Source: Alphaproteobacteria bacterium (GTDB lineage Bacteria; Pseudomonadota; Alphaproteobacteria; Elsterales; Elsteraceae). From it: DNA of 64,000 nucleotides. Under the pieces are notes generated by a model, which was not told where the DNA came from, did not search any database, and saw only the letters and a program-made list of their open reading frames with translations. Positions 1-21,064 of this stretch are shown one piece after another; the first letter of the stretch is position 1, and the number at the start of each line of letters is the position of its first letter. Made by a program: the position numbers and the translations under genes. Location of the stretch: contig JAAFIC010000007.1 of assembly GCA_013298565.1 (NCBI GenBank), forward strand, positions 3,196-67,195, read 5' to 3'.

Positions 1-2464
1 AGCCGCCAAGATTAGGCAGCAGCCCGAACCAGCCATCCAGCGCCAACCCGGCGCGGGCCTGGGCGCGATACAGCGCAATTCCGAGCACGCCCGTTAGAAT
101 CGGGGCGAACGTCGCGCCACTTTGCGTAACGAGATTCTCCAGGCTGCTGCTATCAGAATAATTCATTGCCGCGCCGACGGGCAGGGTTTGGCCATCGACG
201 ATAAGGGCGGGCGCCCCGACCGCCATCGACCAGTCCCAGCCGGTCGCAGGCCCCCAGTTCAGCACTAAGGCGGATGGGCCAACAGCGAGAGCAGCGCCCG
301 CGACCGCAGGCGTGGTAAAGCCGTTGGGCAGGCCGGCGGTGACGGCAATCACCGGGAACGGCGTCGGCGCGCTAATTGCTCCAGCATTGGCGGTGAGTGC
401 CAGCAGCCCGGCGTTTAGCCGCAGATCGAGCGGTGTACTTTTGGCTAAGGTGATGCTGGACCCCGCCGCTAGCCCAACCGTTAGGCGCGTGCCGCCCGTG
501 GTAGGAGAATCGAGGAAGGCCGCCAGCGAAATGATCGTGCCGCTCGGCCCCAAGGCGACCAACCAAGGGTCGCTCGCGGTGCCGTCCCCCGTCACGCCGC
601 CGGGCGATGCGCCGGAGAGGGTGAGCAAATCGCCCAAGGCCGCAATCATGTAATGGAGCGGTTTTTGCGTGCCGATGGTCTCGCTGCTGGCGATCACATT
701 GGCCCAATAGGTGCTGAAGGCCGTGACCGGGTTCTGGAAACTGTTCAGAATCGCGCTGGGTCCGAACGGCGGCGCAAGATCGGCGGGCCAAATCTGGTTC
801 TGCGACAGGGCGGGTGTGCCAACCCCCAGGAGGGCGGCGAGCGATTGACCGACTGTGGTTGATTCACTGCCGAACAGGCGATTGAAAGCGGCAGTGAGCG
901 CGGTCGCGAGTTGATCGGCGGCGACCTGCACTACGTCTTGCGGATCGAGCAGATTGATACTGCCGTAACTGCCCGTCGGCGTGGTTACAGCGTTCAAGGT
1001 AAAGGTTGGCAGAAGAGTGACGCCTTCGGTTGGGTTGAGCAAGCTCACCCCACCGCTAACGCTGCCGAAAACGAAAGTCTGCCCGCCAACCTCGCCTGAA
1101 AACAGCGGCTTGCCGTCGGTACCGCTTAAGTGCAGGCCAGCGGAAAAATTACCCGTCAGGCTGGCGGAACTGCCACCGGGGGTGAGCAGAAAATCCATCA
1201 ACTCCAGCGCGGCGACGGCTTGGAACTGCGTGCTTCCGCCGATAATCTTGCCCGCCGACTGGTAGGTAAGGCCCGGATACAGGTGCCGCAGTCCGCTCGC
1301 ATCGACGGCAGTGCCAACGCTCAGGGCGAGCGCGCCAATCGAACTCACCGAGAACAGCGGAATTTGATAGGGATCGACGCGGCTGCCGCTGCCGGAAATC
1401 GCGGGCGTCTCGCCCGTCGCACCCGCAACGAGACCGCCAACCGCCGCAAGCCATGCCTGCAACAGGGTGGCATCGCCCGCAATCGCCGTGAACCAATCGC
1501 GGATCGGTTGGGCGATGTCGCCGCCTGCGACAGCGAGCGCGGCGAATTGATCCCAGCGCAGGATCGGCAGGGTCACGTCGGCGATGCCGGGAACGCTTGG
1601 CCCCAAACCCACGGCGGGCAGAATATAGCCGGTCGCGGCAGTCTCGCCGATAGCGCGCGTTAGCGCCCCCATCGCCAAGGCGGCAACCAAGGCTAAAAGC
1701 TCGGCCCCGCCAATGGCTTCGAGATCGGCGAGGGTATAATCTTTCGCCACCGACTCAGTTGGCAGAACGAGATTTTCGATGACTAAGGACACGCCAACGG
1801 CGGGGTTTGGCACAAACGATAAATCGCAGGTTAAGCGCACGCCGGTGAACGCGAAGCCATTGGTGGAAATCAGGCTTTCGCCTTCGCCCGCCGTCACGTC
1901 GAACCCGATTGTAATAGCGCCTTCGGCAGTGCCGAGTGCGACCGCAACCGACCCATCCATTTTCAGCAGCGGTACGAGACCCCAGACATTGAGGTTAATT
2001 TTATCTGGCCCGCTCAGTCCCGCCGCCGCCGCGCTCACCTCAACTTCAGAGAGGGCGACGCTGGTTTGATAGAGCGTGCCGACGCCCAAAATACTGCCGC
2101 TACTGCCCGTGGGCGTGCTGGCGATGTAGAGGCCCGTGGGTTTGGGGGCAGGGGTCGCCTCCGGGTTTAGAATCGGATACCAAACCCCCAAATTGGCCGG
2201 GGCCTGCGCGGGAATGCCAAGCGAGCCGCCCGAGGCTTGCCCAATAAGCTGCGCGATTAAGGCCGCAAGGGCAGGGCCACCCGAGGCCAAGCCGTCGCCA
2301 GTCTTGCCAATCGGGTTAGCGAACCAGTCCGGGTTGAGACTAAAGCTGCCCGGCGTGCCGGGGTCTTCGGTCAAAAGCCCAATGGCCGTGCCGAGGGTTA
2401 AGATCGGCGGATCAGCTTCCGTCGCGGTCAGCGTAAAGGGGTTGTCGGTCAGCGTGGCAATCAT
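1..2464 (-). CDS. N-terminal 821 codons of a very large hypothetical protein (3' end lies beyond the window start)
   Basis: This ORF is absent from the supplied track because it has no in-window stop. Hand translation of the minus strand from ATG 2464 (MIATLTDNPFTLTATEADPPILTLGTAIGLL...LRWDQFAALAVAGGDIAQPIRDWFTAIAGDATLLQAWLAA...) stays open to position 2. Third codon positions are GC-rich. The only track ORFs in this span are short and lie in other frames. The product is Ala/Gly/Leu/Thr-rich, with no signal peptide and no domain I can name. Confidence 0.6.
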   Translation of the reverse strand, partial: MIATLTDNPFTLTATEADPPILTLGTAIGLLTEDPGTPGSFSLNPDWFANPIGKTGDGLASGGPALAALIAQLIGQASGGSLGIPAQAPANLGVWYPILNPEATPAPKPTGLYIASTPTGSSGSILGVGTLYQTSVALSEVEVSAAAAGLSGPDKINLNVWGLVPLLKMDGSVAVALGTAEGAITIGFDVTAGEGESLISTNGFAFTGVRLTCDLSFVPNPAVGVSLVIENLVLPTESVAKDYTLADLEAIGGAELLALVAALAMGALTRAIGETAATGYILPAVGLGPSVPGIADVTLPILRWDQFAALAVAGGDIAQPIRDWFTAIAGDATLLQAWLAAVGGLVAGATGETPAISGSGSRVDPYQIPLFSVSSIGALALSVGTAVDASGLRHLYPGLTYQSAGKIIGGSTQFQAVAALELMDFLLTPGGSSASLTGNFSAGLHLSGTDGKPLFSGEVGGQTFVFGSVSGGVSLLNPTEGVTLLPTFTLNAVTTPTGSYGSINLLDPQDVVQVAADQLATALTAAFNRLFGSESTTVGQSLAALLGVGTPALSQNQIWPADLAPPFGPSAILNSFQNPVTAFSTYWANVIASSETIGTQKPLHYMIAALGDLLTLSGASPGGVTGDGTASDPWLVALGPSGTIISLAAFLDSPTTGGTRLTVGLAAGSSITLAKSTPLDLRLNAGLLALTANAGAISAPTPFPVIAVTAGLPNGFTTPAVAGAALAVGPSALVLNWGPATGWDWSMAVGAPALIVDGQTLPVGAAMNYSDSSSLENLVTQSGATFAPILTGVLGIALYRAQARAGLALDGWFGLLPNLGG

Positions 2465-2489
2465 GGCCTGCGCGTTTTTAAGAGACTCA

Positions 2490-3533
2490 TCAGGCATCGG
2501 CGGGATCCTTTCCCTCGGTCCAGACTATTGAAATAGGAATACCGTCAGCGCCCGTGCGCCCGTGCGATCCAACCCGACCTAGCGACCCATCGGGGGCACC
2601 AAGCCCGGCGTTCCCCGGCGTTCCGGCGATCCCGCCATGACCGCCGAGTGCAGTTGGCGTGATGAGGCCTAGGCGCGCGCCGTCGGCCCGGTCGCGAATA
2701 CCAATCTCGAAGCGCCCGCCCGCACCGCCGCGTCCACCATCGCCACCATCGCCGCCGTCGCCGCCGTTACCGCCGCCGCCCATATCGAAAAAGGCGATAG
2801 CATGACCGCGCCCACCATCGCCGCCCCCGCCGCCGGGGCCGCCGTCGCCCCCTTGTCCGGCCTGGGCTTCTATGTCGATACGCCCGGCAAGATGGTGCAG
2901 GAAGATTGATTGATCGGGCAGCGCTTGGCCGGGTTGTCCGTCGCTTCCAACGCTGCCCGCTGTTCCTGCAACCCCATCGGGAATGTCGCGGCTGCCGCTT
3001 GATCCTGTTGAACCAGCGGAGCCGGGGCTTCCCGCCTGCCCAGGTGGTGCCCGATATACAATCCGGCCCGGCGCTTGCGGATCGGCATAGGCCGAGCGCG
3101 GGTGCGTTAGTCCAAGGAGTTGGCCCACCGTGAGCGTTAGCGGTGCCGCCACCTGCAAAACCCCGCCCGGTTCAATCGCCAGCCGATACGCGATGAGATC
3201 GACAGGATCACCGAAGGGCGATTCGATCAGCAGAGTTTTGCCACTGCGGATAATGAGATCGTCGAAGGCAAAGCGAACCCGCTCGTGCCGGAAGGTTTGC
3301 ATGGCGTCATAGTCGGAGCGCCGCGCCACCCAGGACAGGCGGCAGATGTCGCGCTGGCGACAGGTGTCGATATAGGCGGGCCGCACCGGCGTGGGGTCGA
3401 GCCTATGGAATGCCAAAACCCGGTCGATAGCCTGCGCCGCTGCCTCGGGGATTTCGGCATGGCCCATACAGCGCCGCGCCGTCCAGGTTGGGCGGGGTAG
3501 GGTTTGCGGGATCAGGGGGCGGGCGGCGCGCAT
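2490..3533 (-). CDS. Glycine-repeat protein with an N-terminal globular domain of about 170 aa (hypothetical)
   Basis: Track ORF 2490..3551 begins with TTG. An ATG at 3533 lies 10 nt after the upstream stop. The C-terminal half alternates short hydrophobic strands (SIFLHHLAGRIDIEA, AIAFFDM, RFEIGIRD, IPISIVWTEG) with Gly tracts (GQAGSPGSAGSTGSSGS, GGDGGPGGGGGDGGRG, GGGGNGGDGGDGGDGGRGGAGG). Confidence 0.6.
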   Translation of the reverse strand: MRAARPLIPQTLPRPTWTARRCMGHAEIPEAAAQAIDRVLAFHRLDPTPVRPAYIDTCRQRDICRLSWVARRSDYDAMQTFRHERVRFAFDDLIIRSGKTLLIESPFGDPVDLIAYRLAIEPGGVLQVAAPLTLTVGQLLGLTHPRSAYADPQAPGRIVYRAPPGQAGSPGSAGSTGSSGSRDIPDGVAGTAGSVGSDGQPGQALPDQSIFLHHLAGRIDIEAQAGQGGDGGPGGGGGDGGRGHAIAFFDMGGGGNGGDGGDGGDGGRGGAGGRFEIGIRDRADGARLGLITPTALGGHGGIAGTPGNAGLGAPDGSLGRVGSHGRTGADGIPISIVWTEGKDPADA

Positions 3534-3543
3534 TGACTGAGAT

Positions 3544-5286
3544 TTACCCAACGCTCAAAAGCTGCGCGTAGAGCGATGCTGCGTGATAGCTCGTGCTATT
3601 GGCCGCCGTTGTGTCGCCGCCAGTCACCTGTATCGCCGTCGGCACGCCATACGTGGCCCCGCTGCCAAGGCGCTGGGTCAGCACATCGGCGGGTCGCTGC
3701 ACTTGAAAGCTGATTAGCCCGCTTGCCGAATAGAGGCTATTGGCGAGGGTAAAATCGGCGAAAGGCTGAGTGCCGAAACCATAAACGGCAGCGGCTTTCG
3801 GCAGTGCAGTGGGGTTGTTGATTTGCGCCTGATAGGCCAAGGTCGCCGCCGCAGCCCCGCCGTAATCATGACCGACATAGTAAACGCCCCCGGCTGTGGA
3901 TTGTTCGGCAAGCGCTGCGCTTAGGGCAGGCAGCAGCAGATCGACAAAGGCCAGAACGCCGCCGTTGATACGGCCATCGGTCATCCAGGTTGGGCGCGTG
4001 GTATAGCCGGGGCCGTTGATGAACCCTGTTTCTGCCAATGTCGCCGGGCCGCGAATAACAATGACCAGGGCATTGTTCGCGGGGTTTCTAAACAAAACTG
4101 CCCAGGGTAGGTTCGTCCAACTCTGCCCCGCCAGCAATACTGACCCCACGACCGTGTAGGGCGCGGGTACCGAAACCGCCGCACCGGGGTGCTGGCAGAG
4201 ACCATAGGTCGCCACGCATAGCTGCGCGAAAGCGGCGGCCAAATGCGGATCGAACCCTGTGGGCGGGGTGATGAGCGTGCCTGTTCCAGCTTGCGCTGGG
4301 ATTGCGCCGCCAAAGCCTTGCGAATAGACCGCCGGGGTACGATCGTACCACGGGGTATCGAGCGTGGTGCCAACTGTAAGGGTTAGGGTTTGCGGCGTGC
4401 CAAGCGTTAGAATGCCTGATGGTAAGCCAAAACCGCTCGGCCATAAATCGGTGTTGGGGGCGTTGATGCTGAACAGGCCCGAAACTGCCTTCGTTGCGAC
4501 GGTCGAAAAACTGCTGTCGCCCAACGGCGCGGCGGAGAACGCATAGCAACCGATGTCGGAGGCCGGGCTAACCTGCGTCGCCCCAAGCGGGCCGGTTTGG
4601 CCGGGGCGAAGGTCCAGCGCCGCCAGTTGTGCAATCGCGGCACTTGGACCCATGCCAACGCACAACAACGGGATCGAAGTATTGAAACCGGGTACATTCT
4701 GGAGCATCGGGAGCATCGACCAGATGGCGCTGCGGGCGTTGCTGTAGAAACTATTTGCCAGAAGTAGAATATTTCCCGTGGCAGCCGACGCATCCAACTC
4801 TAGCGCGGCGCGGCGCTGGTTGGCAGGCAGACGGGCCAGGGCAACCAGCGGGCTATCGATCTGGCCCCCAGTTTCGTCGGCACGCAGGCGCAGCACCTCA
4901 AGGCTGATTTCTGCCTCGGCGAGGGCATTGGTAAGCTCTATATCGTCGTGCGCCTCCGCCTTGCCTTGCAGTCCCCCGAAGGACAAATAACTCGGCGTGG
5001 CGCTCATCGTCGTGAACAGCGATGATTTAGCCCCGTAGAAAAAATCGGCCCAGCGGCAGCCGAAGGCCAGAATGGCGACGGGGGTATTGTTCCCGCCAAT
5101 CGGCAGTGTCGCTGTCAGCAGCAAGCCTTGCAGGCCGCCTGCTTGCCCGCCTGAAACCGAAAAACTGGTCACGAGATTGAACGTCGGGGGAACCCAAGCC
5201 TCTGTTACCGGGAGTGTCCCCGCCGGATCAATCAGTTGCAGCAGAGAGTTCGCGAGGCTGGGCGAATAGTTGGAAAAAATAGACAT
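3544..5286 (-). CDS. Tandem lipase class 3-like (alpha/beta hydrolase-like) protein with the nucleophile Ser missing in both halves
   Basis: A 580-aa ORF preceded by a GGGAG SD. The second half has LVIVIRGPAT ... VYYVGHDYGGAAAATLAY, which resembles lipase_3 (xVVAFRGT ... GHSLGGALA) with Ser replaced by Asp. The first half has VAILAFGCRW ... LLCVGMGPSAAIAQLAAL, with Ser replaced by Gly. No signal peptide is visible. Confidence 0.6.
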   Translation of the reverse strand: MSIFSNYSPSLANSLLQLIDPAGTLPVTEAWVPPTFNLVTSFSVSGGQAGGLQGLLLTATLPIGGNNTPVAILAFGCRWADFFYGAKSSLFTTMSATPSYLSFGGLQGKAEAHDDIELTNALAEAEISLEVLRLRADETGGQIDSPLVALARLPANQRRAALELDASAATGNILLLANSFYSNARSAIWSMLPMLQNVPGFNTSIPLLCVGMGPSAAIAQLAALDLRPGQTGPLGATQVSPASDIGCYAFSAAPLGDSSFSTVATKAVSGLFSINAPNTDLWPSGFGLPSGILTLGTPQTLTLTVGTTLDTPWYDRTPAVYSQGFGGAIPAQAGTGTLITPPTGFDPHLAAAFAQLCVATYGLCQHPGAAVSVPAPYTVVGSVLLAGQSWTNLPWAVLFRNPANNALVIVIRGPATLAETGFINGPGYTTRPTWMTDGRINGGVLAFVDLLLPALSAALAEQSTAGGVYYVGHDYGGAAAATLAYQAQINNPTALPKAAAVYGFGTQPFADFTLANSLYSASGLISFQVQRPADVLTQRLGSGATYGVPTAIQVTGGDTTAANSTSYHAASLYAQLLSVG

Positions 5287-5328
5287 TCTGTCGCTCCCTT
5301 AAATGGGGCCGGGGAAAAGGGCATAAAC

Positions 5329-5354
5329 GGGGGCAGCGCACGCGCACCGCCCCC
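5329..5354 (-). terminator. Intra-operon GC-rich stem-loop, possibly a partial terminator or attenuator
   Basis: GGGGGC...GCCCCC arms enclose a GC-rich loop. On the minus strand the stem-loop is followed by GTTTATGCCCTTTTCC. It sits between the stop of the 243-aa Gly-repeat gene and the start of the lipase-like gene. Confidence 0.35.
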
Positions 5355-5371
5355 AAAGCTGACTGGAAAAA

Positions 5372-6103
5372 CTAAGCGGTGCGGCTGATCGTATAAGTTC
5401 CGGCGGCCCCGCTTGTGGCGGTCGCGCCGCTGGCACCACCACTGCCATTGATGCCGCTTCTGGCAGAGCCGGTATTGGCTTCGTTAAGCCCACCGGCCCC
5501 GCCGTTACCGCCGTTGCCTGCGACTCCCCCGGTGCCGCCGACGCCGCCCATCGGTTGGCAGTAAATGAGGCCCATGCTGGTTTTCCACAGAACAGTGACA
5601 GAGCCACCATCGGCCCCTGTACCGCCGCCGCCGCCGTTACCGCCATTGCCGGCAGCGCCGCCCGCCCCACCAACAACAGGGCTGGTTTTATGCGTGTTGA
5701 GGCATTTCGAGATATAGTCCGACGAGTCGCTTTGAGGGGCGTCGCCGCCCTTGCCGCCATTCCCGCCGTTGCCACCACTTCCGCCGCTACCACCGTTGCC
5801 GCTTACGGACACGATGCTGAGAGGACCGACGAGCGTGTCGTAAATCAGGCTCAAGGCCGGAGCGATTGTGCCAGATGTTCCACCAGTGCCCGACTTGCCC
5901 GCTTCGCCCGCCGTACCGGGGGCACCGGAGGATGATGGCGCGCAGGTTCCCGAGGGGCAGCAACCGCCGCTGGTGTTGTAACTCCCCGGCGTTCCATCTG
6001 TCCCGGCCTTGCCAGGGCTACCAGGGGTGCCGTTTGCGCCATCCGTTCCGTCAACCCCGAGGATTCTTATCTGGTAGCCGCTCAAATCCAGTGCGCGTGC
6101 CAT
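5372..6103 (-). CDS. Glycine-repeat protein A (collagen-like GXY tracts plus GGN/GGS tracts; hypothetical)
   Basis: A 243-aa ORF preceded by an AGGAA SD. It contains QIRILGVDGTDGANGTPGSPGKAGTDGTPG (eight consecutive G-X-Y triplets), the Cys loop GGCCPSGTCAP, LSIVSVSGNGGSGGSGGNGGNGGKGG, the loop YISKCLNTHK, GGAGGAAGNGGNGGGGGTGADGG, and SVTVLWKTS. It ends in TYTISRTA. Confidence 0.7.
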   Translation of the reverse strand: MARALDLSGYQIRILGVDGTDGANGTPGSPGKAGTDGTPGSYNTSGGCCPSGTCAPSSSGAPGTAGEAGKSGTGGTSGTIAPALSLIYDTLVGPLSIVSVSGNGGSGGSGGNGGNGGKGGDAPQSDSSDYISKCLNTHKTSPVVGGAGGAAGNGGNGGGGGTGADGGSVTVLWKTSMGLIYCQPMGGVGGTGGVAGNGGNGGAGGLNEANTGSARSGINGSGGASGATATSGAAGTYTISRTA

Positions 6104-6212
6104 GGAATGATTTCCTTTGTGCTAGAGCAAATTCCGGGCAGATGGGTTCACCTGCAACGGTGCCTTTGCTTCAAAATCAATGACTGGAAAACGCTGCCGC
6201 GACCCCGAAGGA

Positions 6213-6896
6213 TCAGGCCGGTTGAAAGATGATCTGACCGATTTGGGAGGGAGACGTGGGCGCGCCGTTAGCGCCAGTTGAGCCGCCGCTGCCATAACCG
6301 AGATCCCCGTTGCCCGTCCCTGGTGCCCCGCCGTTCCCGCCCGAGGCCCCTTGACCCGCCCAACCGTATTTGCTCGTGTCCATCGTCATGCTGGTTGCAT
6401 TGTTCTGCTCGAACGTGATCAGAACCGTTGGGCCTTTGGGGGCACCATTGCCACCATTGCCGCCTCTGCCGCCGCCGCCGCCCTGACCGCCTTTGGCGTT
6501 GGCATAGGAAGTCGAGTTGCAGCAACTAACAGCAGTGCCGCCAGCTCCGCCGGTCCCGCCGGTCCCGCCGCCGCCGCCAACTCCGCCGCTGCCGCCCTGG
6601 CCACCGAGAACCTGAAAGATAAAAGCGCCTGTGATTACCTGAGTATAGTTGGTGAAGTCAGGTGCCGGTGAGCCGTCTGTGCCCCGGCCCCCGTCTATTC
6701 CGGCTTGGCCCGTGCCGCCATTTTGCGGCGGGCTTGCCGATGTCCCACAGTTTTGATTTTTGTTGCCGCTACAGGCACCCGCGTAGAAAGCAGCCCCGCT
6801 AGAACCGGCCCCTCCGGTAGCTCCGGCCCCGCCAGCGGTCCCGTTCGCTCCCATGACAAAAAATGTAGGAACAGCATCTGTAGAAACGGAAGTCAT
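6213..6896 (-). CDS. Glycine-repeat protein B (paralog of 5372..6103; hypothetical)
   Basis: A 227-aa ORF preceded by an AGGAGA SD. It has the same module order as protein A: TFFVMGANGTAGGAGATGGAGSSG, the Cys loop ACSGNKNQNC, GGTGQAGIDGGRGTDGSP, AFIFQVLGGQGGSGGVGGGGGTGGTGGAGG, the loop SCCNSTSYAN, GGQGGGGGRGGNGGNG, and TVLITFEQN. It ends in IGQIIFQPA. Confidence 0.7.
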   Translation of the reverse strand: MTSVSTDAVPTFFVMGANGTAGGAGATGGAGSSGAAFYAGACSGNKNQNCGTSASPPQNGGTGQAGIDGGRGTDGSPAPDFTNYTQVITGAFIFQVLGGQGGSGGVGGGGGTGGTGGAGGTAVSCCNSTSYANAKGGQGGGGGRGGNGGNGAPKGPTVLITFEQNNATSMTMDTSKYGWAGQGASGGNGGAPGTGNGDLGYGSGGSTGANGAPTSPSQIGQIIFQPA

Positions 6897-6919
6897 AATT
6901 TTCTCCTGATTTTAGGGTT

Positions 6920-7549
6920 TTATTTGCTAATTATTTGATTTGAAGTGATGCTAACCGGGACATTCATTTGAACGTATCCGCCAGACTCAATGGTAATCGT
7001 CCCGAAGGTTAACTGTGCCGGGTAAGAGCTATCAATGATTAGCGGATTGCTTGCCGTAATCGTAATATCTTGACCGGGCGTGTACGTAATCATCATCGGG
7101 AAATGCAGGCTATTGATAGCGTCTTCATGTTCCGACGAAACGCGGCGGCTATCGCCCAGCACATAGGAGCGCATGTGCGTTGAGAGCGTATCAATATCGT
7201 CTGCCGACAGCAGCGATTTGAACGTGCAGCTATCAGTCTTAGCGCGCTCGATGAGCGCCCGGAAATTGGTAGGGGAGGCCCCTAGGTACGTAATGTGGCG
7301 ATCTGCCCCCGGCGTAGCATCGAAATGCGCGTTGGGAACGCCGCCAATAGCCTTGTATTGGGCGATGTTAGCAACTTCGACTTGCTGGGAGCCAAGGTTA
7401 TCGCGCGATGGATTGCTCGAAATAACCATCGGGCCTTTGTGCGTATTCGGCCCAAAGAAGCGACCTGATAGCGCTTCTACACTCGAGCCAAGCGCCTTTA
7501 AGCGCGGCGCCAGAAAGTTCTGCTGATCTTGGGTAAGCAAAGTGGCCAT
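6920..7549 (-). CDS. Hypothetical protein, first gene of the orphan operon
   Basis: The track ORF extends to 7630. ATG 7549 (MATLLTQDQQNFLAPRLK...) is preceded by AGGAG at 7 nt spacing. The C-terminus looks beta-rich (ITITASNPLIIDSS...LTFGTITIESGGYVQMNVPVSITSNQIISK). I recognise no family. Confidence 0.65.
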   Translation of the reverse strand: MATLLTQDQQNFLAPRLKALGSSVEALSGRFFGPNTHKGPMVISSNPSRDNLGSQQVEVANIAQYKAIGGVPNAHFDATPGADRHITYLGASPTNFRALIERAKTDSCTFKSLLSADDIDTLSTHMRSYVLGDSRRVSSEHEDAINSLHFPMMITYTPGQDITITASNPLIIDSSYPAQLTFGTITIESGGYVQMNVPVSITSNQIISK

Positions 7550-7623
7550 GGAAATTACTCCTGGGAACAAGCCAAGCGGGTGGATTTGGGAAAAGAGCAG
7601 CCTTAAGGCGAAGAAGTCGAAAA

Positions 7624-7649
7624 AACGCAAATTCTGGCTTGCATGTTCA
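7624..7649 (-). promoter_or_regulatory. EcfG-like promoter candidate (tGAAC-N17-CGTT) upstream of the orphan operon
   Basis: The minus strand reads TGAAC-atgcaagccagaatttg-CGTT about 75 nt upstream of ATG 7549. Compare the perfect GGAAC-N16-CGTT sites in this same window at 21926-21950 and 22816-22840. This site has one mismatch in the -35 element. Confidence 0.3.
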
Positions 7650-7801
7650 CCGCCTACGTCTCGCTTCAGGCATAACCCTCATATTATAATATTCTGAAAA
7701 GCGCAACACCCTAAGATGTATTTTGAAAATATATTCTTTTTTGAATCATACTTAAATGCGTGTAGCTTTGATCGAGTTTGGACGGTTGAAAGGATTTTTC
7801 C

Positions 7802-8587
7802 ATGTCGCCTCGGCCCCTCACCGATACGCCTGCGGCCCGTATTCCTCGGTTAAAACCTTGGCTGCGCCGATTGCGGCGGCGGTTTGCGCTCTATAATCTT
7901 GCTGGCTGGTTGAACCCGGTGTTCGATCTGTGGGTTGGTGGGCGGCAACGCCAGGTGTTCTATGATATCGATCACGACGCCCCCGCCTTGCGGCAGTTGG
8001 ATGCAGCTTTTCCCGAAATTCTATCGACCTTTGAAAGGGTTATGGGGCATCTGGAGCGGCTGCCCGCGTATCACACGCTGGATCACGACGTGATTTATTC
8101 ATCGGGCCGCGCGCAGCGGGATGCGCGCTGGGGCGTCTTTATGATTACCTGTTTTGGTCATAAGCCGAAGGCGGCGACGACCTTATGCCCGGACCTGATC
8201 GCGCGGCTTGAAGCAATCCCCGGTCTCTATCAAGCCTTCTTCTCGGTGCTTGAGCCGGGAAAATCAATACCGGCGCACGTTGGCCCGTCGCGGGTTTATC
8301 TCCGCTATCACCTTGGCTTACAGGTGCCGACCGAGGCGACGCCAACGCTGCGCGTTAAGGATCAAACCTACCGCTGGAAAACCGGCGAAAGCATTCTCTT
8401 CGACGATTCTTGGGATCATGAAATTGAAAATCATTGCCCTAAGATGCGGGCCATTCTTATCGTCGATGTCCAGCGGCCCTTGCCGTGGCCTTTAACCTGG
8501 ATCGCCTGGGTTCAACGCAAAACAGCGGCGCTGCATTATGCACGCCGGATTGTTGCTGCGGCGGATCGTTTGATCCCATCTTCTTAG
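7802..8587 (+). CDS. Aspartyl/asparaginyl beta-hydroxylase family (2OG/Fe(II) oxygenase, LpxO/AspH-like)
   Basis: A 261-aa ORF with the family-typical stretch GKSIPAHVGPSRVYLRYHLGLQVP followed by ILFDDSWDHEIENH. An AAAGGA SD precedes it. It is divergent from the orphan operon across an AT-rich 252-bp spacer. Confidence 0.8.
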   Translation: MSPRPLTDTPAARIPRLKPWLRRLRRRFALYNLAGWLNPVFDLWVGGRQRQVFYDIDHDAPALRQLDAAFPEILSTFERVMGHLERLPAYHTLDHDVIYSSGRAQRDARWGVFMITCFGHKPKAATTLCPDLIARLEAIPGLYQAFFSVLEPGKSIPAHVGPSRVYLRYHLGLQVPTEATPTLRVKDQTYRWKTGESILFDDSWDHEIENHCPKMRAILIVDVQRPLPWPLTWIAWVQRKTAALHYARRIVAAADRLIPSS

Positions 8588-8680: not shown

Positions 8681-10129
8681 ATGGCTGTAAGTATCGAGAG
8701 TGCGGATACAGGACAGCTTAGATTAACCGCCGCTCAAGGCTACGCCCGCTATTTATCGGTTGCGGTTGTAGGGCAGCGGTTTGCCATTCCTTTAGATCGC
8801 GTTATCGGTGTTACCGAGAGTACAACGCTAACCCCCCTACCGTTTAGCCCACCACCGTTCGAGGGGCTTGTTCTAGCGATGGGGCAAGTGGTGCCGCAAA
8901 TCGGCCTTGCCGCGCTGCTGGGGCTGAAAACCCAGGAAGCGGGCGTGCTTGTCTTGATCTCCGATTTTGGCGGCAGTGTTGGGCTGCGGGTGGACCAGGT
9001 TCATGCTATGATCCAGGTCGATCTCGAACAAGTTACGCTCACCTCCTCGGAGGAGCGAGCCGATGCGCCGATGATCCTTGGGAGATTTGGGGAAGGGGCT
9101 TTAGCGTGCTCCTTGCTCAATCTCGATCACCTCACCACCGATACCGGCATGATGAGCTTCGCCGAGAGCGGGGCGGTTTTGCTAGCGTCTGAAATCGGGG
9201 CCGGGGCGCTGGAGGCGGATGAGGCTAGCTCGGATCAGACCCAGCCCTACTTGATGCTCGACGTTAGCGACGAAGTTTATGCGATCAAAATTGATCATCT
9301 GGTCGAACTGTTGGAGCTTTCCACTCTGCGCCCGGCCCCCCACGCGCCCGCCTGGATCGCTGGGTTGATTGACCGGCGCGGCGCACCGCTGTTGGGATTG
9401 TCGCTCGCGGTGCTCTTGGGACGGCCTGAAGGAAGATCTGGCAAGCTCGGTGTTGTGGTCGCGCTTGAAACGGGGGATGTTGCGCTGATTGCCGATCACA
9501 GCCTTGGGATCGAGCGTTATGCCGCCGATCAAGTGCATGGCTTGCGCGAACCCGTGGCGGGAATTGCGAGCTATCTGGTGAATGCCGATGGCAGCATCGT
9601 GGGCATCCTCGATACGCAAACGCTGCTGAACCCAGTGCAGGATGACGTATGCCTCTGGACGCCCAAGGCAACCACCTCCCCGGTTGCGGTGGCCGGGCCA
9701 GTGACGCCGATGGAATTCCATCAATATCTCACTTTGCGGATTGGGCGGGAGTTTTTGGCCGTGCCGCTGGACCGGATTCAACGGGTGGAAGCTTCCATCG
9801 AGATGACCCCGATCCCGGATCGGGGAACCGGCTTTCATGGGCTGGCTGATGTGGGTGATGCGGTGGTGCCGGTGATTGATCTGCGGCAAGTGCTCAGCGG
9901 TGGGGCCGAGCCGATTGTGCTGGAGGCCAATCCACCGTGTTTGCTGGCGATGGTCGAAGGTGGGATTGCCGGGGTTATCGTTCATCAGGTTCTGCGGATC
10001 GAAACCGTGCCGGAAAACCAGATTAGTCTGGCGGAGGATGTGAATAATTTGCCGATTTCACAAATTATTCACGTTCAGGACCGTCTCATGAGTGTTGTTT
10101 CACTCGACCGGTTGCTTCCACCCCTGTAA
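8681..10129 (+). CDS. Scaffold protein with three tandem CheW-like domains
   Basis: Three repeats of the CheW signature are present: QRFAIPLDRVIGVTE...FEGLVLAMGQVVPQIGLAALLG; EVYAIKIDHLVELLE...IAGLIDRRGAPLLGLSLAVLLG; REFLAVPLDRIQRVEA...FHGLADVGDAVVPVIDLRQVL. Confidence 0.85.
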   Translation: MAVSIESADTGQLRLTAAQGYARYLSVAVVGQRFAIPLDRVIGVTESTTLTPLPFSPPPFEGLVLAMGQVVPQIGLAALLGLKTQEAGVLVLISDFGGSVGLRVDQVHAMIQVDLEQVTLTSSEERADAPMILGRFGEGALACSLLNLDHLTTDTGMMSFAESGAVLLASEIGAGALEADEASSDQTQPYLMLDVSDEVYAIKIDHLVELLELSTLRPAPHAPAWIAGLIDRRGAPLLGLSLAVLLGRPEGRSGKLGVVVALETGDVALIADHSLGIERYAADQVHGLREPVAGIASYLVNADGSIVGILDTQTLLNPVQDDVCLWTPKATTSPVAVAGPVTPMEFHQYLTLRIGREFLAVPLDRIQRVEASIEMTPIPDRGTGFHGLADVGDAVVPVIDLRQVLSGGAEPIVLEANPPCLLAMVEGGIAGVIVHQVLRIETVPENQISLAEDVNNLPISQIIHVQDRLMSVVSLDRLLPPL

Positions 10130-10179
10130 CCCTGAATGCGTAACGCTGATCGTGTGTGTGAGCGTTAGAGAGTACGTCC

Positions 10180-10581
10180 GTGGCGAATACCTGCGTGGTC
10201 CTTATTGGTTTCGAGCCTGTTATGCACGATCTGCTCTTGGATCGGTTGCAGGCGGATTTCCTCAAGCTCACCGCCGCAATAGGCCTTGATGCGGCCTTAA
10301 GCGCGGCGCGCGGCGCAACGGCGGCGGATCGTCTTCTGATTGATATTGATGGTTGCCCGCAGGAGCCTGCGGGGGTCATCGCCAAACTCCGCCTGGTCAG
10401 TGCCGCGCCAATTATCGTTCTCAGTGCCACGGTTGCGCCGGGCAGTGCCAATGCCAGCGCCTTTTTGCAGGCAGGAGCTTCGGCACTGGTCACAAAACCC
10501 GCAGGCGCATTGCCGTTGGTGTGGTCCGGCGAGGCCGGGGAGCCACTTCTCCACGCCCTTCGGGAGGCGCTGACCCGATGA
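10180..10581 (+). CDS. Single-domain receiver-like protein (divergent CheY-like)
   Basis: A 133-aa ORF. LLIDIDGCP is a candidate phospho-Asp site, and IIVLSAT and LVTKP occupy the T/S and K positions. The N-terminal acidic pair is degenerate (LIGFEP). Its stop overlaps the cheA ATG (ATGA). Confidence 0.55.
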   Translation: MANTCVVLIGFEPVMHDLLLDRLQADFLKLTAAIGLDAALSAARGATAADRLLIDIDGCPQEPAGVIAKLRLVSAAPIIVLSATVAPGSANASAFLQAGASALVTKPAGALPLVWSGEAGEPLLHALREALTR

Positions 10582-13313
10582 GCACCAATAACTCCGATCT
10601 GGTCGAACAGTTTGCGATTGAAACCCAGCAGCATCTGGACGAAATCGAACCTATTCTGTTTTTGCCGGAAGGCGAGCTTCCCGATCAAGCCACGATTGCG
10701 GCGCTGTTTCGCGGGTTCCACTCGATCAAGGGTCTCGCCCGCGTGCTGGGGCTGCGCGGGCTGGAGGCGCTGGCCCACCATACAGAAAGCCTGCTGGCGG
10801 AGGTGCGGAGCGCGCGCCAACCGTTCACGCTTGCACTGCGCGATTTGCTGTTGGAAAGCCTCGACGCGATTCGCACACTGCGGGAACACGGCATCGTCGG
10901 TGGTTTGGACGAACGCGCGCCGCCTGCCTTGTTAAACGCGCTGGAGGCGGCGCTGCACTCTGGGGCGAAAGGTGCAACCTTAAACGATGCAAGCCCGCAA
11001 GTTCCCGAAGGCGCGCTCCACCCTGATGCCGAAACGCTCACCTATTTTGCGGAAATGCTGGCGGATTGCCTGCCGGGCCTCGCCGTGCTCGCCGGGGTAA
11101 CTGGCTGGCGCGATCAGGCAGTGAGCGATCTTGAGATGCTGCTGGTGGCGGCTGAAAAATTGGCGTTCCACGGTCTGTCTGCCCGGCTGTATGCGCTGGC
11201 CCCGACCGTCGATCCCGCGAATATCGAGCCTTTTGCCGCTGTCATCGCCGATGCCCGGCGCTTTGGTCGATTGATTGAGCAGGATGTGGGGGCCGAGGCC
11301 GCGTTGGCTGCAATCGCCCCGCTATTGCGCCTGACCCGTGCCGAGATTGCGGCAGATCTGCTGCCCGCTCTTGGCCTCAACGCTACCGAAGCTCGCACGC
11401 TGACCGCACGGCTCGTGACGATTGCAGCGGCAGGGCTTAGCGATGGCGAGATTTCTCTTAACGTGATGCAGAGTTTGGACGCGCCTGCGGTCTATCCGGC
11501 CTTACGTGCCGCGCTTGAAACCTTGGTGAGGGGTGGTAGCTCCGGTAGCGACGACCTCCTGGAGCTAGCCGGGGATCGGCTACGCGAGGCGATTGCGGCC
11601 CCTTGGGTTTTGTCGCCGCCCGTGCGTAAACTTCTCGAAGATCGCGGTATTGCGCCCGCGTTGTTGGGTGATTTGTCGCAAGATCGGATTGGCCCGCTGC
11701 TGGAAATTTTGGCCGGGAGCGAGCGAAGACTGCTGCTGCTCACCCTTGCCTTGCCAGTGCGGGGCGCGCGGGCCGATTTTCTCGCTTGGCTCAACCAGCG
11801 CTTCTTCCCCACGGCGGCGCGCGCGTTCACGCAGAGCGGGGTTGACGTCGCAGCGCTCCTGGTTGTGAGCGCCGACGCCCCACGCGCTATACGCGCCGAT
11901 ATTTTGGCGGCTTACCCCGATCTAGCCTTTGTCGATACCCGCGTGCTAATTGACGATTCAGTGGAAACCCCGTGGTCGCCGCCCCGAACCGCCAACAAAA
12001 TCAGAGGGAGCGACCCTGCCGACAATCAGGTGCGCGTTCCCGTTGAGATTCTGGATCGGTTGTTCGGGCGTATTGGCGAGTTTTTCAGCATCAGTAGCGC
12101 GCTGAACGTCTTGATCGTCGATTCGCAAGTTCCGACCATCCTTCATAAGCTGGCCGATCACGCCATGATCAAGGAACCGGCGCTGCTGCCGATGATCGAC
12201 ACGCTCCAACGCCAGCAGAACGATCTGTCGCAGGTGGAAGCCGAAGTGCATCGGCTGGTCAGCCTCATTCACGAGGCGACGTTGGGGCTGCGGGTCATTC
12301 CGCTCGATATCGTTTTCAACCGTTTCCCGCGCATGGTCCGGGAGTTCGCGAAAGAGGAAGGCAAGCAAATCCGCTTCGAGGCGCGGGCTGACGGCATTAA
12401 GGTCGATAAAGGCATGACCGAGTTGCTGGCTGATCCGCTGATGCACATGCTGCGGAACGCCGTCGATCACGGTATCGAAAGCGCGGCGGAGCGGGCGGCA
12501 ACCCATAAACCGCCGCTCGCTCATATCCGCCTGAGTGCCGAGCAACTCGGCAACCGCATCGTTATCGAAATCCGCGACGATGGCCGGGGTATTGATAGCG
12601 AGCGCGTCCGGCGACGGGCGGTAGCCCAAGGGCTTGTGACCGATTACGACAGCCGCAAGCTCTCGGTAGAGCAGATCAATCGTTTTATCTTCGCGCCCGG
12701 CTTTTCCACTGCCGATAAGGTCAGTGAAACCTCGGGCCGAGGCGTCGGTATGGACGTGGTGCTCATCAACATCTCGCGCCTCGGCGGGCGGATCGACGTT
12801 CGCACAGTGGTGGGGCAAGGGGCGATCTTCCGGCTCGATATGCCGCTGTCGGCGGCGATGCAAACCGTGCTGCTGGCCGAAACTTCGGTTCAAACGGTGG
12901 CCTTCCCCGAACGCATGGTGGTCGAAGCGGCAACCGTGCAACGCGACACTATTCAATACGTCAACGGTCAGCGCGCTATTTTGCACCATGACCGCTTCTT
13001 ACCTTTGTTCGGGCTAACCGACCTGCTTCATATCCCGGCGGGGGTGGATCGGGAAGAGCAGGGGGATTTGTCGGTTATCATCGTCTCCTCCGGGCGCTTT
13101 CGCTATGGGGTTGAAGTCACGCGCATTTTGCGCCGTCACGAAATGCTGATCCGCGAAACTCACCCGCGCATCGCCCAGCTTCCCGGCATCGGTGGGGTCT
13201 CGACCCTCGGCACCGACAGGATTGTGCTGGTGGTCGATCCCGAAGGGCTGACCGATCTTGCCCGCCGGGCCATCGTGCCGGGGATGCGCGTGCCGTCTCA
13301 GGCGGCGGAGTGA
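10578..13313 (+). CDS. cheA: Chemotaxis histidine kinase CheA (911 aa, with a long insert after the HPt domain)
   Basis: The start is taken at ATG 10578 (MSTNNSDLVEQFAIETQQHLDEIE). The upstream part of track ORF 10353.. overlaps the previous gene and looks non-coding (Cys/Arg/Gly-rich). Motifs present: HPt FHSIKGLARVLGL, N-box HMLRNAVDHGIE, DDGRGID, GRGVGMDVV, and a C-terminal CheW-like domain. Confidence 0.9.
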   Translation: MSTNNSDLVEQFAIETQQHLDEIEPILFLPEGELPDQATIAALFRGFHSIKGLARVLGLRGLEALAHHTESLLAEVRSARQPFTLALRDLLLESLDAIRTLREHGIVGGLDERAPPALLNALEAALHSGAKGATLNDASPQVPEGALHPDAETLTYFAEMLADCLPGLAVLAGVTGWRDQAVSDLEMLLVAAEKLAFHGLSARLYALAPTVDPANIEPFAAVIADARRFGRLIEQDVGAEAALAAIAPLLRLTRAEIAADLLPALGLNATEARTLTARLVTIAAAGLSDGEISLNVMQSLDAPAVYPALRAALETLVRGGSSGSDDLLELAGDRLREAIAAPWVLSPPVRKLLEDRGIAPALLGDLSQDRIGPLLEILAGSERRLLLLTLALPVRGARADFLAWLNQRFFPTAARAFTQSGVDVAALLVVSADAPRAIRADILAAYPDLAFVDTRVLIDDSVETPWSPPRTANKIRGSDPADNQVRVPVEILDRLFGRIGEFFSISSALNVLIVDSQVPTILHKLADHAMIKEPALLPMIDTLQRQQNDLSQVEAEVHRLVSLIHEATLGLRVIPLDIVFNRFPRMVREFAKEEGKQIRFEARADGIKVDKGMTELLADPLMHMLRNAVDHGIESAAERAATHKPPLAHIRLSAEQLGNRIVIEIRDDGRGIDSERVRRRAVAQGLVTDYDSRKLSVEQINRFIFAPGFSTADKVSETSGRGVGMDVVLINISRLGGRIDVRTVVGQGAIFRLDMPLSAAMQTVLLAETSVQTVAFPERMVVEAATVQRDTIQYVNGQRAILHHDRFLPLFGLTDLLHIPAGVDREEQGDLSVIIVSSGRFRYGVEVTRILRRHEMLIRETHPRIAQLPGIGGVSTLGTDRIVLVVDPEGLTDLARRAIVPGMRVPSQAAE

Positions 13314-13317
13314 CGCG

Positions 13318-13806
13318 ATGGAGTTTCACTATCTCCACGTCCGCTGTGGCCCTTACCGCATTTTGCTCCCTGGCAAAAACATTGGTGGTATTGATTCCGC
13401 GACCGATGCACCAACGGGACGGCAATCCTTTCGCCGCGCTCGCCGCGAAGGCCGGTTGCCAATGATTGATGCGCGGCGGCTGTTGGGTCTGGCAGCAGAG
13501 GGCGGCGGCACCCCTGTGCACATCTTCTGGCGTCAGCCGGACGGGGCGGTTTGCGCGATTTTAGCGGTGGATGGTGTCGAGGGTCTACGCGGCGGGTTCG
13601 AGGCGGAGTTTCTGCCGCTGCCGCGCGCGCCGCTGGGGTTTCATGAGATGTTTGATCGCTTGGTGTACGATAAGGATGGCAGCTTTCTGCTGCGATTGCG
13701 GCAGAATTTTCAGCCATTTTTGGGCGATATTCCGGGGCGTCGGCGGTTTTTAGGGGCCATTACCGGGGCAACGTGCGGCCCTGCTAGCGGGAAGGTTGCG
13801 CCATGA
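13318..13806 (+). CDS. Divergent CheW-like coupling protein
   Basis: ATG 13318 lies 4 nt after the cheA stop (MEFHYLHVRCGPYRILLPGKNIGGID...ILAVDGVEGLRG...FLLRL). The resemblance to CheW is weak. Its position in the operon supports the call. Confidence 0.5.
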   Translation: MEFHYLHVRCGPYRILLPGKNIGGIDSATDAPTGRQSFRRARREGRLPMIDARRLLGLAAEGGGTPVHIFWRQPDGAVCAILAVDGVEGLRGGFEAEFLPLPRAPLGFHEMFDRLVYDKDGSFLLRLRQNFQPFLGDIPGRRRFLGAITGATCGPASGKVAP

Positions 13807-15500: not shown

Positions 15501-15544
15501 CCTTTCCCCTCTCATGCTGACACTTGGCCTCTTGGAGACACATC

Positions 15545-17251
15545 ATGTTTCGTTCCCTTAAGATCAGAGAGAAACTTTTGTTTCCAATCGGCCTGTTGAT
15601 TGCCGTTCTGATTGGCTCGACCTATATGCTCGTAACGGAACTGAGCCGTACGACCAAGACGTTCGAGAGCTTGATTCAAACCGAGTTGCGTGCCCGGTTT
15701 ATCTCCAAAGACCTGTCGGCGATCCTGTCAGATAGTGGCCGCTTGGCCAATCTTATGCTGCTTCAGCGGGAAGCGGCGGATTTCACGGCGACCGCAGATA
15801 GATTACGCAGCTATCTTGCGCTCATCCAACCTCGCCGTGACGAGTTGGGGCGGCTCGCCCCCCATAAGGCCACTGCGCTGGAGAAGGTTACGCTGGCGCT
15901 GGTCTCGATGGAGAAGTCCCTACAACCGACTTTGGACCTAAAGCTCGCTCGGGATTTCGAGGGGGCGGCGGCCTATTGGGCCGCAAATGGCCGTTCCGCG
16001 CTGCTGCCCGCGCTAAACGCCATGAACGAAGCCGCCGACCAATTGCAAGCCGCCGCTGCGAAGGCCGTGGTCGATCAGGTCGATGAGGTCAACGAGCTTG
16101 TCTTGGATTTGGTTATCGGCTTGAGCGCGGTTATTTTCGTAATTGCTGCGTTGGCGCTGCTGATCGTGCTGCGCGGTGTCGTCGCGCCGATCAAACGGCT
16201 TACGGCAAAGATCACTCAACTCTCAGGGGGCGATGGCAATTTCGAGTTGCCGGAAGCCGAACGCGGGGACGAGTTGGGGGCGATGGGCCGCGCGTTGCTG
16301 GTTTTCCGCGAGAACGCTGAGAAAATCAAAGTCGCCATGACCGCCGAAGCCGTGACCATCGAGATTGGGGAGGTGATCGCCCAGGCCGCCCGGAACGATC
16401 TAACCGTTCGAGTGAATCTTGACAATAAAACCGGCTTTCTGCGAAACATCGGCGCGCAGATCAACCAGTTGGTTGAAGGCAGCAATAATACGCTGAGGGA
16501 TATTGGCCTAAAGACCCGGCAAGTGGCAGTGGCCGTAGCGGAAGCCAGCGCGGCGGTGGGCCAAGTTTCGGGCGGGGCGCGCGTGCAGAATAATGCCGTT
16601 GGGCAGGTCACGCAGTCCTTGACGGAATCGGCCAAAGCCATCCGTATGGTTTCGACCAGCGCCAATGTCGCCAATGAAAAGGGCGTGCTGGCCGCCAATC
16701 TGGTGGAACGCGGGCGTGGGTCGGCAGAAGATTTGTCGCGGATTGTCGAAAAAGTCGCCCAGAACAGCCGTAAAATCAGCCAGATCACGCAAGTTATCGC
16801 CGGGATCGCCAACCGCACCCATATTCTATCACTGAACGCTGCCATCGAAGCCGCGCGCGCCGGCGAACACGGCAAGGGCTTCGTCGTCGTCGCTCAGGAA
16901 GTGGGCAAGCTCGCCGAAAGCGCGGCCCAGAACGCCCAACAGATCACCGATATCGTCGAACAAGCAACAGCAGACGCGGCGGCAGGCCATACCGCCTCGA
17001 TGCTGGTGAAGCAGACGATGGAGTCGATTGCAGGCGAGGTTTCGGAAACCAGCCAGATGATCCGGTCGATTGCGGTGGCGATGGAAGAACAGCAGGCTAT
17101 TGTTTCGCAAATCGAAGGCAATGTGACCGAGTTGCGCGGTATCGCTTCGGGCAATGCGGTCGCGGCGGAAGAAATCACCGCTACTATGATCCAACTCTCG
17201 CAACTGGCCGACGATCAGCGCAAGCAGGTCGATCAGTTCAAAACCCAATAA
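15545..17251 (+). CDS. Methyl-accepting chemotaxis protein (2 TM helices, HAMP, MCP signalling domain)
   Basis: ATG 15545 follows a GGAG SD (the track ORF starts at TTG 15524). There are two hydrophobic helices. The signalling hairpin is [41 protein letters not shown]. Confidence 0.9.
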
Positions 17252-17269
17252 CCCCGCTGTGATCAGAAT

Positions 17270-21025: not shown

Positions 21026-21064
21026 TGCAGATACTCACCCTATTCCCCTCAGAAAAACGGCGGA

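Follow-up and report, generated by a model that had tools for sequence, protein, structure and literature searches.

Which kind of protein alternates tracts of glycine triplets with short hydrophobic strands and Cys-containing loops, and what may it do for the cell? This question is raised by two adjacent genes, here named A and B, on the minus strand of the window, that is, the whole stretch of 64,000 nucleotides that we analyzed (positions 3,196 to 67,195 of contig JAAFIC010000007.1, from an alphaproteobacterium of the Elsteraceae). An earlier note, made from the letters of this DNA, had described their products as two paralogous glycine-repeat proteins. According to family alignments and profile scores, A-type (about 245 aa) and B-type (about 205-225 aa) proteins are ancient paralogues of a large uncharacterized family of Gly-rich modules, and there is good support at the level of structure prediction for Gly tracts that form polyproline II/polyglycine II (PPII/PGII) helices packed with beta-hairpins. 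As to their function, the overall best explanation, which we hold with slightly more belief than doubt, is that these folded Gly-helix modules are binding subunits of a multiprotein complex centered on a giant protein.

A family of Gly-rich modules

The limits of the two open reading frames (ORFs) and all the motifs quoted for them in the earlier note are exact and stand in the order given there. By direct reading from the N to the C terminus, A carries QIRILGV, GTDGANGTPGSPGKAGTDGTPG, GGCCPSGTCAP, LSIVSVS, KCLNTH, SVTVLWK, and TYTISRTA, and B carries TFFVMGA, GANGTAGGAGATGGAGSSG, ACSGNKNQNC, AFIFQVL, CCNSTS, TVLITFE, and IGQIIFQPA. Both genes have ribosome-binding sites of the AGGAG/AAGGA type 7-9 nt 5' of the ATG (AGGAG in the case of B), a Shine-Dalgarno sequence also precedes the gene of a lipase-like protein in the same row, and a search for terminator-like sites over positions 5200-7900 found none between the genes. 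With respect to the closest orthologous locus (L007), the ratio of nonsynonymous to synonymous substitution rates (dN/dS) is 0.19 for A and 0.16 for B; therefore, A and B are real, coding, and expressed-looking genes under purifying selection. Glycine makes up 30% of each protein. The probability that a Gly is followed by another Gly three residues later is 0.68 in A and 0.63 in B, compared with 0.26-0.38 at offsets 1 and 2, and the Gly codons in the DNA of both genes are mixed.

A third paralogue in the window, gene C, had been overlooked by the earlier note. Its C-terminal half is a Gly module with minimal loops, and orthologues of C are present in L007, L010, L011, and Azospirillum. Pairwise BLASTP with composition correction gave no significant alignment among A, B, and C, the best A-B match having an E value of 0.05. 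Paralogy was tested with profile hidden Markov models of orthologues (four in the case of A), which were compared with shuffled controls (300 residue, 300 triplet, and 300 block shuffles of B, with blocks of 21 residues). With the profile of A orthologues, B obtains 40.4 bits; the highest scores among its controls are -15.5 bits for residue and triplet shuffles (z about 14) and 16.3 bits when intact blocks of 21 residues are shuffled (z 6.8). In the opposite direction, the score was 35.1 bits, with a z of 13.5 against residue shuffles but of only 3.0 against block shuffles, whose maximum of 36.5 bits exceeds the real score. Thus, the likeness between A and B is more than compositional, and the scores support a common order of modules, in one direction only moderately. 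Together with the family alignment, these scores bear out the paralogy and the shared module order that had been proposed for the two genes.

More specifically, when A, B, and the C-terminal half of C were aligned by MAFFT with eight distant relatives from metagenomes, a single collinear plan emerged, in which 22 Gly columns are invariant. The plan begins with a strand, a G-x-x tract, a first loop that often contains two Cys, and a second G-x-x tract. It continues with a beta-hairpin, a GGx tract, a second loop, often with Cys, and another GGx tract, and it ends with a beta-hairpin, a GGx tract, a short loop, a G-x-x tract, and the final strand. The earlier note had proposed to align orthologues and to abandon the fold if no register was conserved; the Gly register is indeed conserved, with 20-22 invariant columns in the family alignments.

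By an exhaustive profile search over 1.84 billion cluster representatives, we retrieved 7,000 matches at E<=1e-3, 2,302 at E<=1e-10, and 76 at E<=1e-30. The top matches are mostly proteins of 390-420 aa in which the module lies C-terminal to a further domain, here called the N-domain; some are stand-alone modules of ~240 aa, and some exceed 1,000 aa. We scanned 50 members for known domains, a choice biased towards the longer ones, and found TIG domains in 12 of these 50 and GDSL lipase in 3, while single members fuse the module to a trypsin-like peptidase, a B_lectin, or an FctA pilin domain. Two relatives (P0006 and P0020) start with signal peptides. The copies of Pfam, NCBIfam, PADLOC, and PHROGs that we searched contain no family to which A, B, or the N-domain would belong, and the library matches were limited to Collagen below its threshold, a chance conotoxin, and a marginal PHROG named "tail protein". 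Sequence searches of the PDB with A, B, a profile of the N-domain, the giant protein, and four proteins encoded downstream of the giant in related loci returned nothing meaningful, and in the literature, we found no description of the Gly module family or of its operon.

The N-domain has its own gene in the window, just upstream of B. The product of this ORF matches the N-terminal parts of fused relatives by BLASTP with E values of 8e-18 (P0008) and 3e-10 (P0003). The extra N-terminal domain is found in relatives P0003, P0007, and P0008, and the N-terminal half of C is also homologous to it. The window therefore contains a split set, in which the N-domain gene is followed by B and then by A, and a fused copy, C. 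The N-domain gene is present in 19 of the 19 genome loci described below. The idea that the N-domain/B split is a frameshifted pseudogene was rejected, since B has its own ribosome-binding site and the split is kept in all 19 loci.

The Cys loops, which together with a C-x-N motif had been presented as part of a fixed layout, turned out not to be features of the family. A has three Cys in the first loop and one in the second, plus one nonconserved Cys, and B has two in each; C has none, and some relatives, such as two Longimicrobium copies, are also Cys-free. The C-x-[ND] motif of A is missing from the A-type proteins of Azospirillum, although that clade retains the gene of a soluble Asp/Asn beta-hydroxylase-family protein which, in the window, is divergent from the operon. 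Because C and several relatives lack Cys and the Azospirillum A-type proteins lack C-x-N, the Cys loops are additions to the scaffold and not what defines the family. Given its absence from these Azospirillum proteins, C-x-N was rejected as a hydroxylation motif conserved along with the hydroxylase.

These proteins are also poorly visible to fast database searches. A word-indexed search for homologues of A returned only 8 distant matches and no orthologues, and the same kind of search with the N terminus of the giant returned nothing, despite orthologues at 95% identity. An exact look-up of ten Gly-rich proteins in a collection of 15 billion proteins found none of them, including genes called on NCBI contigs, and a look-up of C from the window likewise gave no record. 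Low-complexity families such as the Gly modules are systematically under-detected, and this blind spot of word-indexed searches extends even to orthologues at 88-95% identity.

Predicted fold of the module

AlphaFold2 models were computed for A from an alignment of 11 sequences and for C from 51 sequences. The model of A has a mean predicted local distance difference test score (pLDDT) of 81.5 and a predicted template modeling score of 0.74, three of its five models being near 80. The model of C reaches 84.2 and 0.71, with all five models at 78-84 and the 10-residue blocks over residues 90-340 at about 86-99. In both models, the Gly tracts have pLDDT values of 95-99 and are assigned by DSSP neither to helix nor to strand, while the hydrophobic segments are predicted as strands (residues 12-14, 84-91, 95-100, 168-176, 180-185, and 236-241 of A, by DSSP of the model). 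The Cys loops are the parts of lowest confidence.

The comparison of orthologues points in the same direction. The orthologues of A share 88, 56, and 47% identity with it and those of B 89, 62, and 59%, and the Gly tracts of both sets carry no indels save for one in-register deletion of 3 residues. Other indels fall in the first Cys loop, in a hairpin turn, and in the late loop before the last tract, and the DNA repeats within the tracts are short and imperfect. This pattern fits a fold of constrained length, not disorder or slippage-prone repeats, and the suggestion that slippage of the tracts would create length variation found no support.

These observations weigh on a very different explanation, in which the Gly tracts would be either intrinsically disordered linkers or short triple helices of the collagen type, and the confident models would be artefacts of a Gly-rich input. 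It can draw on weak matches to Collagen below threshold (PF01391, gathering cut-off 27.2 bits, with 16.4 bits for A, 22.3 for C, and no match for B), on two of the five models of A, which stay at pLDDT 43-49, and on low template modeling scores (TM-scores) to real PPII bundles. We consider it very unlikely, as tract length and register are invariant over the orthologues and the family, unlike those of disordered linkers, and as the GGx tracts differ from collagen in that two-thirds of their residues are Gly and few are Pro. Moreover, dN/dS is 0.16-0.19, all five models of C, built from 51 sequences, score 78-84, and there is no trimerization domain. Collagen as such was rejected on the subthreshold PF01391 scores and on tracts of at most 8-9 triplets, four of six of them being of the GGx type. 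RTX repeats were rejected as well, since neither protein contains GGxGxDxUx, only 2 (A) and 1 (B) isolated GGxGxD occur, and the period is 3, not 9. On both points, our results agree with the earlier note, which had set these two families aside.

Natural Gly-rich PPII bundles described so far comprise springtail antifreezes, the Obg N-domain, acetophenone/acetone carboxylases, gp38, the glycine-rich domain of ALK/LTK, and predicted PGRS domains (bioRxiv 10.1101/2023.11.25.568672; PMC13243192). Foldseek searches against the PDB with both models placed at the top the nine-helix PPII antifreeze protein of Granisotoma rainieri (7jjv, E values of 1e-5 and 4e-4), followed by the antifreeze protein of the snow flea (sfAFP; 3bog, 2pne). 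The model of C gave weaker matches to receptor-binding domains of gp38 (9v85, E 0.018; 6f45_D, E 2.2), to beta-helix enzymes, and to tailspikes, and the model of A matched gp38 9v85 only at E 8.6. The proposal that A and B belong to the folded PGII/PPII-bundle class thus holds for the predicted fold class.

The springtail proteins share with the module a Gly at every third residue, in tracts that are predicted here as extended helices, neither alpha nor beta, lying side by side, and they give its best Foldseek matches (E 1e-5 to 1e-2). On both sides, Cys are found in the connecting segments, and sfAFP is stabilized by disulfides (bioRxiv 10.1101/2023.11.25.568672). However, no PDB sequence match links the modules to 2pne, 3bog, or 7jjv, and the TM-scores are only 0.1-0.43. 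A, B, and C are also 2-3 times larger, with beta-hairpins, a need for the N-domain, and an operon containing a giant protein, while A and B have no secretion signal and carry polar or charged residues at the x positions, where the springtail proteins have an ice-binding face. That A and B are themselves ice-binding or antifreeze proteins, as might be suggested by 7jjv, 3bog, and 2pne at the top of the structural matches and, if its label stands for glacier-fed stream, by the closest genome, the metagenome-derived GFS_11880, seems to us the least probable of all the explanations considered. The same operon is found in Azospirillum, Chitinophaga, Hahella, and Marinomonas, it carries no export signal, and the obligatory N-domain and the link to a giant protein have no parallel in antifreeze proteins. 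By direct reading, N, D, S, K, and T predominate at the x positions, and these do not form a flat Ala/Thr face.

The adhesin gp38 from the long tail fibers of T-even phages (6f45 of Salmonella phage S16; 9v85 of PP01) resembles the modules in alternating Gly-rich motifs with variable loops and in attaching to a larger partner by its N-terminal domain, in addition to the weak Foldseek matches of the C model (E 0.018 for 9v85 and 2.2 for 6f45_D). In contrast, there is no match to gp38 by sequence or in PHROGs, the sole PHROG match being a marginal one to a collagen-like "tail protein" (E 0.003), and the TM-score is about 0.13. No phage genes lie near A and B, the N-domain is unrelated in sequence, and the modules come as 1-6 tandem genes. 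The mycobacterial PE_PGRS proteins offer a third comparison. They have long GGx-type repeats that AlphaFold predicts as PPII bilayers, so that on both sides the fold is known by prediction only, and they recurrently carry lipase or protease cargo domains (PMC9436101, PMC13243192). The differences are that the window has no PE domain (Pfam scan at E<=0.1), that the Gly module has six fixed tracts while PGRS arrays are highly variable in length, and that it occurs in Gram-negative phyla with beta-hairpins and an N-domain as part of the unit.

Among predicted viral structures (BFVD), the best match of model A is the Terrestrivirus protein A0A3G4ZNF8, which bears the name DUF7932 (E 1.3e-5, probability 0.99, TMq 0.27). 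With 1,137 aa, this protein is close in length to the bacterial, TIG-bearing long form P0061 (1,125 aa). In the Pfam copy that we searched, DUF7932 gave no match at E<=10, nor did it in 50 family members.

Taken together, the low TM-scores and the presence of beta-hairpins in the models suggest a known class of fold with a distinct predicted topology that matches no solved structure. The sfAFP/gp38 design, invoked in the earlier note, is therefore not a direct model, as the predicted topology does not copy it (TM-scores of 0.1-0.45). PPII-bundle domains are few so far, and the Gly modules would enlarge this class by an extensive family from bacteria, which numbers thousands of cluster representatives and has no model in the Pfam and NCBIfam copies searched. 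As a unit of fixed length that mixes PPII helices with beta-hairpins, the module is a tractable system to study how such folds are stabilized and possibly a scaffold for design.

An operon conserved across phyla

In the left part of the window, the genes of the minus strand follow each other in the order N-domain, B, A, lipase-like protein, C, and giant. By tblastn, the N terminus of the giant is 95% identical to that of L007 and 30-76% identical to those of all other loci. Full-length relatives of the giant have 3,125-3,290 aa and, in all those examined, a DUF6603 domain (PF20248) at about residues 2060-2610; the window itself ends before this domain. No paper that we found in the literature mentions DUF6603 or DUF7932, and library and PDB sequence searches recognized no toxin domain in the DUF6603 giant.

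The gene order is kept in loci L007-L012 and in a gammaproteobacterial contig from a hydrothermal vent. It is also kept in 19 species-level genome loci, counted as four phyla, the groups concerned being Alpha- and Gammaproteobacteria, Bacteroidota, and Gemmatimonadota. Among these genomes are the alphaproteobacterial metagenome-assembled genome (MAG) GFS_11880, a MAG labeled Bacteroidota, four Azospirillum, three Chitinophaga, two Hahella, two Marinomonas, Fulvivirga, a Chitinophagales MAG, Saprospiraceae, Lewinella, and Longimicrobium. The best genome match is GFS_11880, whose lipase-like protein is 90% identical to that of the window; like PhyR and an HWE kinase elsewhere in the window, this match identifies the host as an alphaproteobacterium. 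In general terms, the operon consists of the N-domain gene, 1-6 Gly modules, the lipase-like protein, and the DUF6603 giant, and the number of modules culminates in Chitinophaga sp. Hz27, with six tandem genes of B type (L025, 4985-9479). In Marinomonas rhodophyticola (L031), the genes of the lipase-like protein and of the giant are split into several ORFs, and the operon appears to be decaying.

What lies 3' of the giant is known from other loci, as this region is not visible in the window or in its closest relatives. There, a coupled gene follows the giant, and in metagenome loci, the operon goes on with proteins of about 505, 305, 1,324, and 480-640 aa (L033-L046). These four downstream proteins have no Pfam or PDB sequence match. 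Next comes a type I polyketide synthase (PKS) with a fatty acyl-AMP ligase (FAAL) in 6 of the 8 loci examined, confirmed by Pfam in three and absent in L043 and L046. The whole forms a conserved operon of ~35 kb, found across phyla, that is dark in almost all of its proteins, those of 3,100 and 1,300 aa included.

The lipase-like protein may not act as its name suggests. Its nucleophile elbows in the window read GMGPS and GHDYG, neither of which has Ser in position, so that GxSxG is not found. The nucleophile position holds Ser in Chitinophaga, Asp in the clade of the window and in Marinomonas, and Gly in Hahella. Because this Ser is not conserved, canonical lipase activity is doubtful.

Several neighbors of the modules could act on them. 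In one explanation, the modules are substrates of modification, either by Asn/Asp hydroxylation through the divergent neighbor or by acylation through the lipase-like protein or the FAAL-PKS, and would for this reason be associated with lipids or membranes, as proposed for the PE_PGRS "sails". The hydroxylase keeps its divergent place in L008-L012 and in Azospirillum L015-L018, where it is 56% identical, while the genes beyond it differ, and this constancy throughout the alphaproteobacterial clade speaks for such a role. So do the N- and D-rich GGx tracts and the recurrence of lipase-type and PKS genes beside the module or fused to it. On the other hand, the hydroxylase is absent from the loci of Bacteroidota and Gammaproteobacteria, C-x-N is not conserved in Azospirillum, where the hydroxylase is present, the lipase nucleophile varies, and two operons (L043 and L046) lack the PKS. 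We regard modification as unlikely to be what the modules are for, although it would be compatible with their being binding subunits and does not exclude it.

A second context connects the module with giant proteins of another kind. In L032 (1186-15961) and L002 (1700-17431), an Rhs/YD-type protein of 2,705-2,719 aa (SpvB/DUF6443/RHS) is followed by a protein that fuses N-domain and Gly module and then by a type I PKS. The Rhs/YD protein of L032 ends with a C-terminal Stv domain, a domain for which a toxin function has been proposed (bioRxiv 10.1101/2022.08.23.504947), and no Stv match was obtained in L002. The Gly module also follows other giant proteins in L001 and L006. The modules might accordingly be accessory proteins of giant toxins, with a function as immunity protein, chaperone, or adaptor, given that the fused module directly follows an Rhs/YD protein with a putative toxin domain in other genomes. 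Immunity proteins, however, vary with the toxin domain, yet the module stays in L002 in spite of the missing Stv match. In addition, the operon studied here has its modules, in 1-6 copies, upstream of the giant, and no toxin domain is recognizable in the DUF6603 giant. We judge an accessory function improbable, to about the same degree as modification.

A phage origin of the system was rejected, given that no gp38 PHROG was found, that a scan of viral contigs with the gene downstream of the giant was empty, and that no phage genes are neighbors. The plasmid collection contained no match to the lipase-like protein, and a known defense system was rejected after a PADLOC scan.

Proposed role of the modules

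To account for these results, we propose that each module consists of six Gly tracts, with Gly strictly at every third residue, that would form left-handed PPII/PGII helices. These helices are predicted to pack against each other and on three short beta elements, leaving two exposed loops between tracts. The module would need the beta-rich N-domain, which is fused to it in most members and encoded just upstream for A and B. As both form one confident body in the fused relatives, A and B would dock onto the N-domain by their N-terminal strand. The operon genes, including A and B, would be cotranscribed with the lipase-like protein and the DUF6603 giant of about 3,100 aa. The modules may then act as nonenzymatic, rigid scaffolds that display variable loops and as interchangeable subunits for binding or recognition within a large assembly organized by the giant, in the way that the PGII sandwich of gp38 presents receptor-binding loops. 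A rigid, loop-displaying binding subunit is our best guess for the function of the module.

A role in binding or at the surface is favored because relatives fuse the module to adhesin-type and secreted-enzyme domains, some of them with signal peptides. It is also favored because the modules diverge faster than the giant (A at 88, 56, and 47% identity versus 95, 76, and 66% for the giant) and because their copy number varies by species. Several points weigh against it. No signal peptide or transmembrane segment was found in any operon protein examined (the N termini of the window and four complete loci), so that an extracellular role would need an unrecognized route of export or release, and as long as the proteins stay cytoplasmic, disulfides could not form between the paired Cys. 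The loops are fairly conserved among orthologues and change less than expected of receptor-binding loops in an arms race. Two of the five AlphaFold2 models of A, made from a shallow alignment, are poor (pLDDT 43-49), and TM-scores to all known PPII bundles are low (0.1-0.45). The fold is a predicted one, and the contacts of A and B with the N-domain and with the giant are proposed.

A bolder version of the binding-subunit explanation, which we consider rather unlikely though less so than a modification or toxin-accessory function, is that the operon encodes an unrecognized multiprotein machine. This would be either a released toxin-like complex or an apparatus of the cell surface, with the PPII modules as swappable tips for target recognition that are held on the DUF6603 scaffold through the N-domain. 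Such a machine, present in at least four bacterial phyla, would be encoded by about 10 genes spanning about 35 kb, and none of its components matches a described system. It would be a cellular counterpart of the gp38-type PGII adhesin, with possible contributions from a dedicated lipid or polyketide and, in the Alphaproteobacteria, from the hydroxylation of Asn/Asp. As the operon is present in cultured species of Azospirillum, Chitinophaga, Hahella, and Marinomonas, its function is directly testable.

Table 1. Coordinates in the window of the operon genes, of segments of protein A, and of the divergent neighbor.
Feature	Position	Strand	Basis
Giant protein, start (N-terminal 832 residues; runs off the left window edge)	1..2497	-	tblastn to orthologues
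Gene C, 347 aa, N-domain fused to Cys-free Gly module	2490..3533	-	Alignment, AlphaFold2, orthologues
Lipase_3-like protein, 580 aa, tandem alpha/beta-hydrolase-like	3544..5286	-	PF01764, E 1e-8
Gene A, A-type Gly-rich module, 243 aa	5372..6103 (including stop codon)	-	ORF, ribosome-binding site, orthologues, dN/dS, AlphaFold2
A residues 144-166, second GGx tract, followed by beta-hairpin 168-185	5606..5674	-	AlphaFold2 and alignments
A residues 123-143, second loop with single conserved Cys (C134)	5675..5737	-	Low pLDDT, 48-62
A residues 101-122, GGx tract after beta-hairpin 84-100	5738..5803	-	0 indels in four orthologues compared; pLDDT 96
A residues 42-58, first Cys loop (C47, C48, C53), length variable among orthologues	5930..5980	-	Alignments; pLDDT 58-70
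A residues 16-41, first G-x-x triplet tract	5981..6058	-	10-residue pLDDT blocks 98, 95; no DSSP helix or strand
Gene B, B-type Gly-rich module, 227 aa	6213..6896 (including stop codon)	-	ORF, ribosome-binding site, orthologues, dN/dS, profile of A orthologues
N-domain gene, 209 aa from M28 of a 236-aa ORF, beta-rich	6920..7549	-	Orthologues of 207-209 aa (P0009-P0016); BLASTP to fused proteins
Asp/Asn beta-hydroxylase-family gene, divergent from the operon	7802..8587	+	PF05118, E 6e-36

Beyond the hydroxylase gene, positions 8681-19080 of the plus strand hold a cluster of chemosensory type, which encodes a protein with three CheW domains, a CheA-like kinase, a response regulator fused to an adenylate/guanylate cyclase, a methyl-accepting chemotaxis protein, CheR, and CheB. 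This cluster resembles a Che-like pathway whose output would be a cyclic nucleotide. Further on, positions 20057-21865 of the minus strand carry an HWE histidine kinase adjoining PhyR, the alphaproteobacterial regulator of the general stress response.

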